In this document: positions 4,060-4,184 of the stretch, one piece after another
How positions within the stretch are numbered: position 1 is the first letter of the stretch
Layout of the letters: each line of letters starts with the position of its first letter
Notes under the pieces: generated by a model
Seen by the model: the letters and a program-made list of their open reading frames with translations, nothing else
What the model was told of the DNA's origin: nothing
The model's database searches: none
Translations under genes and position numbers: made by a program
Source of the DNA: Candidatus Heimdallarchaeota archaeon
GTDB taxonomy: Archaea > Asgardarchaeota > Heimdallarchaeia > Heimdallarchaeales > Heimdallarchaeaceae
Reading direction: 5' to 3'
Assembly: GCA_016839945.1 (NCBI GenBank)
Contig: JAEOTE010000006.1
Coordinates: 1 to 9,300, forward strand
DNA: 9,300 nt

Positions 4060-4123
4060 AAAGTTAAGGCCTTCCACGTGTGGCTTTGTACTAAGTTCCG
4101 CGAGGGCTTGGGAACAGCCGTTC
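4060..4123 (+). rRNA. Segment B: equivalent of the 3' two-thirds of a 5S rRNA (loop B 3' side, helix II 3' strand, helix V, loop E, helix IV, loop D)
   Basis: aaagttaagg matches the archaeal GAAGUUAAG loop B motif. ccttccac is the helix II 3' strand with a bulged C. ggct (4082-4085) pairs with agcc (4116-4119) as helix V. ttgtact / gggaac matches the loop E GUAC / GGGAAC signature. aagttc (4093-4098) pairs with gggctt (4104-4109) as helix IV, with loop cgcga. The following gttc resembles the ..CCCGGUUCGCCGCC 3' end of the Haloarcula 5S as I recall it. Confidence 0.8.
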
Positions 4124-4141
4124 GCTGCGATGCGTCGCGGC
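4124..4141 (+). rRNA. Helix I equivalent closed into a hairpin: 6-bp stem gctgcg/cgcggc with 6-nt loop atgcgt
   Basis: Hand-paired: g4124-c4141, c4125-g4140, t4126.g4139, g4127-c4138, c4128-g4137, g4129-c4136; loop 4130-4135. In a normal 5S these two strands are the free 3' and 5' ends. An alternative register (4117-4120 with 4138-4141 plus 4123-4125 with 4132-4134) also yields a closed hairpin. Confidence 0.65.
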
Positions 4142-4184
4142 CATAGTGAAGGGGTAACACTCAGACTCATTCCGAACCTGAAAA
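4142..4184 (+). rRNA. Segment A: equivalent of the 5' third of a 5S rRNA (loop A, helix II 5' strand, loop B 5' side, helix III, loop C)
   Basis: GGCCAUAGUGAAGGGGUAACACUCAGACUCAUUCCGAACCUGA closely follows the archaeal 5S consensus GGCCAUAG-(helix II)-ACAC-CnnGA-CUCAUUCCGAAC-nnnG. Helix III is tcag (4161-4164) paired with ctga (4178-4181). Confidence 0.8.

Follow-up and report, generated by a model that had tools for sequence, protein, structure and literature searches.

A circularly permuted Asgard 5S rRNA gene with capped helix I and its predicted maturation into a ring

The 5S rRNA is a universal component of the ribosome and, to our knowledge, its helix I is formed by the two free ends of the molecule in every cellular genome described so far. 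The initial annotation of a locus from a Candidatus Heimdallarchaeota archaeon had claimed that these two termini are fused in the gene, with helix I turned into a short capped hairpin. This raises the question of whether the hairpin belongs to a working 5S rRNA gene and, if so, of where the ends of the mature RNA would be located, or whether it would have any ends at all. The whole stretch of DNA analysed here, referred to as the window, comprises 9,300 nt (positions 1 to 9,300 of the forward strand of contig JAEOTE010000006.1, assembly GCA_016839945.1). The source genome is a 3.0-Mb metagenome-assembled genome in 186 contigs, 88% complete, and the genes found in the window have an archaeal appearance, encoding HypF, a HypE-like AIR-synthase-related protein, an RPA-like OB-fold protein and GyrB.

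Gene order and fold of the locus

No contiguous match to the 5S rRNA model RF00001 reaches the gathering score of 38 bits in the window, the best one attaining 22.8 bits at 4010–4133, as is to be expected if the gene is permuted. When the two sides of the hairpin were searched separately, truncated matches were obtained for both: 4137–4183 correspond to positions 5–51 of the model (27.2 bits, E 1.6e-4) and 4060–4128 to positions 49–115 (22.0 bits, E 0.0056). The coverage of the model by the two halves is complementary, so that all parts of RF00001 are present. A 7-bp hairpin by itself could be due to chance; here, it links two stretches that match the 5S rRNA, in agreement with the proposal that the 5S termini are fused into a capped helix I. 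Furthermore, the source genome yields no other 5S-like match at E ≤ 10, and the permuted model finds one copy in it. As read from these matches, positions 4124–4141 are helix I of the one 5S rRNA gene detectable in the organism, and this gene is circularly permuted. The features of the gene and its immediate surroundings are as follows.

3970–3995, + strand: conserved upstream block TCTCCAATAGCAAAGATTAAAAATAA with the TATA-like element GATTAAAAAT (3984–3993)
4062–4130, + strand: back part of the 5S rRNA, covered by RF00001 positions 49–115, with its helices backed by covariation
4124–4130, + strand: 3' strand of helix I, GCUGCGA, placed by covariation and by comparison of helix I variants
4131–4134, + strand: tetraloop UGCG capping helix I, at the usual site of the free 5S ends
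4135–4141, + strand: 5' strand of helix I, UCGCGGC, placed by covariation and by comparison of helix I variants
4135–4182, + strand: front part of the 5S rRNA, CAUUCCGAAC, covered by RF00001 positions 5–51 and almost invariant in the genus
4195–4200, + strand: run of six T residues, a T-run directly after the outer helix being conserved in the genus

The gene appears as a stand-alone unit of ~185 nt (~4014–4200), in which the back part is followed by the UGCG tetraloop and then by the front part. In the back part, the 3' strand of the lower helix III and loop B (GUUAAG) come first; the helix II 3' strand and helices V and IV together with loop E follow, and the helix I 3' strand comes last. 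The front part continues with the helix I 5' strand and loop A (CAUAG), after which the helix II 5' strand leads to helix III with loop C. With regard to expression signals, 23 distinct loci of the genus share the block CCAATAGYAAAGATTAAAAA at a constant distance; in the window, it lies ~27 nt upstream of G4014. Judged by where it lies and by its sequence, the block at 3970–3995 is likely an archaeal promoter, with transcription starting near G4014, and the T-run at 4195–4200 is likely the transcription terminator.

The same arrangement is well conserved among close relatives, as a 196-nt unit is 81–100% identical in 23 of the 24 other genomes of the genus, and the permuted order is found again in the other families of the same taxonomic order. 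The fold was evaluated on an alignment of 50 distinct sequences from the Heimdall, Hod, Baldr and Jord lineages (A1). When the 5S fold is rotated to fit the permuted order, standard pairs are present in 91.7% of the cells of this alignment, compensatory changes on both sides are observed at 23 of the 35 pairs, and each of the six helix segments is 85–100% paired. None of 500 shuffles attained any of the five measures used, and sliding the partner strands left at most 50% of the cells paired. Helices I–V of the three-way-junction 5S fold are, on this comparative reading, backed by covariation. Thermodynamic folding is less informative for this RNA: the MFE fold of the precursor is more stable than expected (z = -3.1) and contains the outer helix, the leader hairpin described below and part of helix I, while the predicted 121-nt ring does not fold better than shuffled sequences (z = -0.5), with only 16 of the 34 expected pairs present in its MFE fold. 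Because the MFE of the ring is uninformative for this 5S rRNA, covariation was relied on instead.

Helix I itself is paired in 94.9% of the cells of A1, with compensatory changes at four of its seven pairs, as illustrated by the combinations GCUGCGA/UCGCGGC, GCUCUGG/CCAGGGC and CUGGCGC/GCGCCGG. This is the outcome of the covariation check that had been proposed for the hairpin, and it speaks in favour of the pairing. The letters given in the initial annotation (GCTGCG at 4124–4129, ATGCGT at 4130–4135 and CGCGGC at 4136–4141) are those of the sequence, and the stem is indeed short. Its length, on the other hand, had been put at about 6 bp with a 6-nt loop, and both figures need correction: A4130 pairs with U4135, which gives 7 bp and leaves a loop of 4 nt, UGCG. 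This seventh pair co-varies in relatives, being AU in 24 cases, UA in four, CG in two and GC in two. With a loop of this size, the remark that no spacer is available for separate processing of the ends also holds.

A model-based alignment of 44 distinct variants shows a helix I stem of 7–12 bp, which several lineages lengthen by 2–5 pairs, one of them with a 33-nt expansion. The cap is a YNCG tetraloop in 24 of the 44 variants (UUCG in 13, UGCG in 5, UACG in 3, CUCG in 2 and CACG in 1), and no conserved processing motif was seen at the cap among the variants compared. In a canonical Asgard 5S rRNA (L173), helix I is ~10 bp when read by eye, so that the helix I of the window is ~3 bp shorter, and closed. 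The combination of a stable cap and an absent spacer argues that helix I would not be re-opened, and comparison points to a capped hairpin as its most likely permanent state. Among the outcomes that had been envisaged for the locus, the one in which helix I stays closed and the ends lie elsewhere, or do not exist, is favoured on comparative grounds by the YNCG cap and by the position of the gene break in the AA bulge of helix III.

Permuted and canonical genes among Asgard families

The extent of the permuted arrangement was assessed with a covariance model of the permuted gene (R1), which was run on 151 Asgard genomes. Full-length matches of 43–140 bits were obtained in 20 of the 27 sampled Asgard families, given here by code (f1–f9, f11–f13, f17, f18 and f20–f25). 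RF00001, for its part, scores above the cut-off in six families, namely f10 (25/26), f16 (17/19), f19 (3/5), f14, f26 and f27, apparently in the same 151 genomes. The overlap between both sets consists of one RF00001 match of 38.4 bits, which itself lies on a permuted locus of f4. Permuted and canonical 5S rRNA genes are thus mutually exclusive across the 151 genomes. When the sequences were read, the permuted order was verified in f2, f7, f8, f12, f13, f17, f20 and f22–f25, and f10 and f16 were confirmed to have the normal order. A closed genome of 1,418,269 bp belongs to family f7, and the permuted 5S rRNA of f13 is A+T-rich. When applied to the collected loci, R1 gives 45–140 bits for permuted genes versus 28–35 bits for canonical ones; it separates the two kinds and could serve the annotation of Asgard genomes.

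The locus type of this family is also present in the closed genomes of Ca. Heimdallarchaeum aukensis and Ca. H. endolithica, and two closed genomes of the same family present no RF00001 match above the cut-off and two permuted loci each. For the closed Heimdallarchaeum genomes, Wu et al. 2022 reported that no 5S rRNA gene could be predicted (PMC8813620), a failure that the permutation explains. Annotation based on RF00001 appears to overlook the 5S rRNA throughout most of the Asgard phylum. If the reading of these loci is correct, the permuted state would be old within the phylum, since 20 of the 27 sampled families have it, among them the Heimdall and Hod groups that are nearest to eukaryotes. 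The fusion of the 5S ends in the gene itself would also break what has been regarded as a universal rule.

One canonical 5S rRNA gene was detected in a member of the genus (G016:C117, 48.3 bits). It probably lies on a contaminant contig, as it has no close relative in the 151 Asgard genomes, nine of which belong to the genus.

The cut motif and the predicted ring

A permuted gene of this kind needs to be considered together with its leader and trailer, which contain the following elements.

4014–4025, + strand: 5' strand of the outer helix, GCCUAGUAAGGU, pairing with 4184–4194
4026–4032, + strand: linker CAGACAA, whose CAG could pair with CUG 4178–4180 as an alternative, distal central helix
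4033–4053, + strand: leader hairpin CAUCUAG-UUGUGUG-CUAGAUG, specific to the family and located between the outer and central helices
4056–4059, + strand: 5' strand of the 4-bp central helix, CGGG, pairing with CCUG 4177–4180
4060–4062, + strand: 5' bulge AAA, with the predicted cut at 4061/4062; a 3-nt bulge is found at the equivalent place in all lineages
4177–4180, + strand: 3' strand of the central helix, CCUG, whose CUG is part of helix III in the mature fold
4181–4183, + strand: 3' bulge AAA, with the predicted cut at 4182/4183
4184–4194, + strand: 3' strand of the outer helix, ACCUUACUAGG, pairing with 4014–4025 and co-varying across genera

Each AAA bulge sits 3' of a strand of the 4-bp central helix, which is the geometry of the archaeal bulge-helix-bulge motif (defined in PMC4731332). 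The gene is broken between CUGAA and AGUUAAG, at the site of the AA bulge in helix III. In an alignment of 30 sequences from the family of the source organism (A2), the 11-bp outer helix shows compensatory changes at 10 of its 11 pairs, and the changes observed at 4184–4194 within the genus all retain pairing through G-U, as fits an RNA helix on the + strand. The central helix CGGG/CCUG is paired in all 30 sequences, where position 4057 is either G or A opposite U4179 and a G-U or A-U pair is kept. The leader hairpin is paired in 94.8% of the cells of A2, with compensatory changes at three of seven pairs, and the CAG of the linker is invariant in 28 of the 30 sequences, being absent from L084 and L110.

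In the source's family only, a 30-nt insert on the leader side, which includes the hairpin, lies between the outer and central helices, so that the motif is non-standard, or relaxed, on the 5' side. In the Hod, Baldr and Jord lineages, as well as in two other families of the Heimdall order, the outer helix abuts the central helix with no hairpin in between and the motif is fully standard. A cut motif with standard geometry is found in every lineage compared. Two other pairings were considered for this region and rejected. The pairing of UCGGGA (4055–4060) with loop C, suggested by the MFE fold, is not kept in relatives with CAGG, and an outer helix made of GGU 4053–4055 and ACC 4184–4186 was set aside in favour of the distal outer helix as 4053–4055 vary without compensation.

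These elements suggest a route by which the precursor would become a 5S rRNA of canonical sequence. The splicing endonuclease would cut after the second base of each bulge (4061/4062 and 4182/4183), following the standard geometry of archaeal tRNA introns. RtcB would then join A4182 to A4062, and the product (4062–4182, 121 nt) would have the sequence and the fold of a canonical 5S rRNA with no free ends. Helix I would not be re-opened and the ribosome would carry a ring-shaped 5S rRNA. The predicted junction, CCUGAA|AGUUAAG, reconstitutes helix III UCAG/CUGA, the AA bulge and the GU of the lower helix III, which is the canonical arrangement, and the junctions read by hand in other lineages are likewise canonical (CNGG-AA-GUYAAG). 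Since the restoration of the canonical junction was not built into the search, it is regarded as the strongest single argument for the mechanism. The predicted products measure 115–126 nt across lineages, mostly 120–123 nt. A neighbouring register of the central helix, UCGG/CUGA, with a product of 123 nt, would be compatible with the sequences too.

The enzymes that this route calls for are encoded in the source genome. The splicing-endonuclease domain PF01974 is present in two ORFs (205 aa, 91.6 bits; 185 aa, 42.8 bits), and RtcB is represented by one ORF matching PF01139 with 546.6 bits. The presence of two endonuclease paralogues suggests an enzyme of the two-subunit type, and the two-subunit splicing endonuclease is known to tolerate relaxed motifs (PMC4731332). 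Moreover, circularisation is the default for archaeal RNAs that are excised at such motifs, including tRNA introns, pre-16S and pre-23S rRNAs and the Thermoproteus SRP RNA (PMC4731332; PMC3326292), so that a ring is to be expected at least transiently. Cleavage, ligation and the final topology are what we infer from this arrangement, and the confidence attached to each step is not the same. That the RNA is both cut and joined is considered quite probable, and the whole reading, in which the gene is permuted, the mature RNA keeps a capped helix I and is probably a ring, is held with moderate confidence. Whether the closed ring itself would be the ribosomal 5S rRNA is evenly poised. The same balance applies to the wider proposal that, in most Asgard lineages, the mature ribosomal 5S rRNA may be a covalently closed ring of ~120 nt, made by the tRNA-splicing machinery and with helix I permanently capped. 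If true, it would represent the first case of a natural 5S rRNA that has no ends. A ring-shaped 5S rRNA predicts junction reads, resistance to RNase R and continuous density in cryo-EM.

The ring could be only an intermediate that is re-opened, either in the helix I tetraloop, which would give near-canonical ends, or elsewhere, with a linear 5S rRNA in the ribosome. There are precedents for such a fate: most archaea studied re-open their circular pre-16S and pre-23S rRNAs, Pyrococcus circularises its 23S rRNA before opening it at a new site (PMC7758197; PMC12918454), and permuted tRNAs, once circularised, are opened at the natural ends according to Soma 2007, as cited in PMC4267664. However, just 4 nt separate the strands of helix I, where no conserved processing motif is visible, and a cap that is mostly YNCG, with extra pairs in some lineages, looks more like the result of selection for a stable hairpin than like a cleavage site; re-opening is hence viewed as unlikely. 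Alternatively, the RNA might be cut and never joined, or trimmed, resulting in a linear permuted 5S rRNA whose ends would be adjacent in the helix III bulge and held together by the lower helix III and helix II. The mitochondrial 5S rRNA of brown algae is a permuted final product of this sort, with free ends at an internal junction (PMC4267664), and a nick in the bulge would leave all helices intact. Still, the flanks form a conserved, co-varying motif whose cleavage products are normally ligated by the archaeal RtcB (PMC4731332), which is present here, and the predicted cuts restore the exact canonical junction in every lineage, as expected if the ends are joined and not required if they are free. 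An unjoined 5S rRNA thus seems distinctly improbable, and ligation into a ring is preferred.

The position of the cuts and the status of the gene itself can also be questioned. If a distal motif were used, composed of the outer helix, the pairing CAG 4026–4028/CUG 4178–4180 and the hairpin as inner helix, the product would measure ~152 nt and would keep the 4033–4053 hairpin as an expansion of the helix III bulge. The near-invariance of the CAG in the family is in line with this option, as is the covariation of the leader hairpin, which indicates a selected RNA structure. Yet L084 and L110 lack the CAG and keep the proximal motif, all other Asgard lineages have the proximal motif only and no hairpin, and the canonical junction comes from the proximal cut, for which reasons use of the distal motif appears very improbable. 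A pseudogene, finally, would be the decayed remnant of two tandem 5S copies, the working 5S rRNA being encoded in the unassembled part of a genome that is 88% complete. The leader is loosely similar to the front part of the 5S rRNA, with a resemblance score of 19; a score of at least 19 was attained by 50 of 500 shuffles, which is not significant, and the notion that leader and trailer stem from adjacent 5S copies was dropped as evidence. Against decay stand a layout that is conserved with compensatory changes across 20 families, the conserved promoter and terminator, and the closed genomes of the family without a canonical 5S rRNA; given this conservation and the closed genomes, a pseudogene can be all but dismissed. 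The proximal cut in a functional permuted gene is accordingly the reading retained in the comparisons below.

Relation to known permuted and circular RNAs

A full-text search of the literature, outside subscription journals, found no paper on a permuted or circular 5S rRNA gene in archaea. The nearest known system in terms of mechanism is the SRP RNA of Thermoproteus. In T. tenax and T. uzoniensis, the SRP RNA gene is circularly permuted and its RNA is processed at the motif and circular (Plagens et al. 2015, eLife; PMC4731332). In both cases, a universal structured RNA has its halves swapped and is flanked by a leader and a trailer that form a bulge-helix-bulge, and the gene had escaped standard searches for the canonical form. 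In Thermoproteus, the motif is cut by the tRNA splicing endonuclease and the ends are ligated into a functional ring, as is proposed here for the Asgard 5S rRNA. The SRP RNA case is confined to a few Thermoproteus species and has been proven by RNA-seq, Northern blots and enzyme assays, whereas the Asgard case concerns a different RNA, with a maturation route predicted from sequence, and spans 20 of the 27 sampled families. A splicing-type route for permuted genes, known for tRNAs and for the SRP RNA of one genus, would thereby be extended to a ribosomal RNA and to a whole phylum.

Circularly permuted tRNA genes offer a second point of comparison, and they also occur in a few archaea. They have been described in Cyanidioschyzon merolae (Soma et al. 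2007, as cited in PMC4267664). These genes share with the Asgard 5S gene a 3' half placed before the 5' half and a flanking bulge-helix-bulge, and their RNA passes through a circular stage. In the permuted tRNAs, however, RNase P and tRNase Z excise the linker that connects the natural ends, and free ends are restored, whereas the linker of the Asgard 5S rRNA consists of a tetraloop of 4 nt in which no processing signal can be seen.

A permuted 5S rRNA has been reported in the mitochondria of brown algae, where it constitutes the Rfam family mtPerm-5S (Valach et al. 2014, PMC4267664). As in the Asgard locus, a closed hairpin takes the place of helix I and the ends are located elsewhere. The algal RNA is nevertheless organellar and linear, with its ends at the alpha/gamma junction (loop A) and no bulge-helix-bulge or ligation, whereas the Asgard break is found in the helix III bulge of an archaeal genome, and the locus was not assigned to mtPerm-5S. 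At E ≤ 10, RF00001 is the only family listed for the stretch, with overlapping matches of the same clan suppressed.

The stems of archaeal pre-16S and pre-23S rRNAs resemble the Asgard locus in that leader and trailer pair into helices with a bulge-helix-bulge and in that excision and circularisation are carried out by the splicing machinery. Their genes are in normal order and circularisation joins the natural ends, in contrast to the permuted Asgard 5S gene. A circularly permuted 23S rRNA has been described in Pyrococcus, and circular 23S rRNA has been found in ribosomes (PMC7758197; PMC12918454). The archaeal 5S rRNA, unlike 16S and 23S rRNAs, is stated not to be processed via excision and circularisation (PMC12918454), and circular 5S reads occur in Sulfolobus at a low level only (PMC3326292). 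With regard to function, a 5S rRNA engineered in E. coli (cp5S), whose native ends are joined by a tetraloop, supports active ribosomes (Huang et al. 2020, PMC7283268), which shows that the structure tolerates a capped helix I. Unlike the Asgard RNA, the E. coli cp5S is artificial: its new ends lie in loop C or in loop D and are tethered to the 23S rRNA.

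A candidate intron in a normal-order 5S gene

G016 contig C117, 8277-8414, minus strand: normal-order 5S rRNA gene (locus L033), 48.3 bits

This gene carries an insert of approximately 23 nt, placed exactly at the AA bulge of helix III, which is the same site as the Asgard 5S permutation junction. The insert has the shape of a standard bulge-helix-bulge, with a central CACG/CGUG helix flanked by the bulges GAA and AAA, and its inner hairpin is CAGUCU-AUCG-AGACUG. Its removal would yield CACGGA joined to AGUUAAAC. The insert is a candidate splicing-type intron within a 5S gene. 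No close relative of this 5S gene was found among the 151 Asgard genomes of the survey, and contig C117 is therefore probably a contaminant of the G016 metagenome-assembled genome.

Insertions within permuted 5S genes

Two permuted genes contain additional nucleotides at other positions.

G073 contig C142, 8298-8454: permuted 5S gene (locus L190), from the A+T-rich family f13
G169 contig C7, 20114-20271: permuted 5S gene (locus L183) with an expanded helix I cap

The first has an additional insert of about 30 nt within loop C (CCGAA-UGGCUUUCUAAAUUAUAGAAUCUCCGGGA-ACCCGG), which is absent from its relatives. In the second, the helix I cap is 33 nt longer and forms a longer hairpin, an expansion which shows that helix I tolerates insertions at its tip.

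Copy number and locus types

Several genomes carry more than one permuted 5S gene. At least four identical copies are present in G027, a genome of family f4, on contigs C77, C90, C106 and C132 (L034, L163). They lie at the end of their contig or close to it, a pattern suggestive of a multi-copy repeat at which the assembly is broken. A tandem pair was found in a genome of family f3, with the copies approximately 35 nt apart and the second interrupted by a run of N.

L101, 1285-1413: permuted 5S gene, first copy of the tandem pair
L101, 1448-1676: permuted 5S gene, second copy

The closed Heimdallarchaeum genomes (G045 and G046, contig C1 in both) have two permuted loci each, with differing leaders (L037, L038, L084, L094, L110, L122). 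In one locus type the CAGAAA element is present and the outer helix is long, while the other lacks the CAG and has a short helix with the 3' side of its own hairpin.

Surroundings of the 5S gene in the window

Two features of the window lie next to or across its permuted 5S gene.

3806-3890, minus strand: tRNA-Ser(GCU) gene, CCA end encoded
4040-4351, plus strand: 103-aa ORF from the mechanical ORF list

The ORF starts within the 5S gene, extends into the flavodoxin gene of the opposite strand and is almost certainly spurious. The leader GCC-UAGU-AAGG-UCAGAC (4014-4032) is similar to the 5S front part GCCAUAGUGAAGGGGUAACACUCAGAC (4139-4169); it might be the relic of a tandem duplication, but the similarity is not significant, an equally high score being reached in 50 of 500 shuffles. 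The tRNA-Ser(GCU) gene is oriented away from the 5S gene, with about 80 nt between its 5' end and the 5S promoter block.
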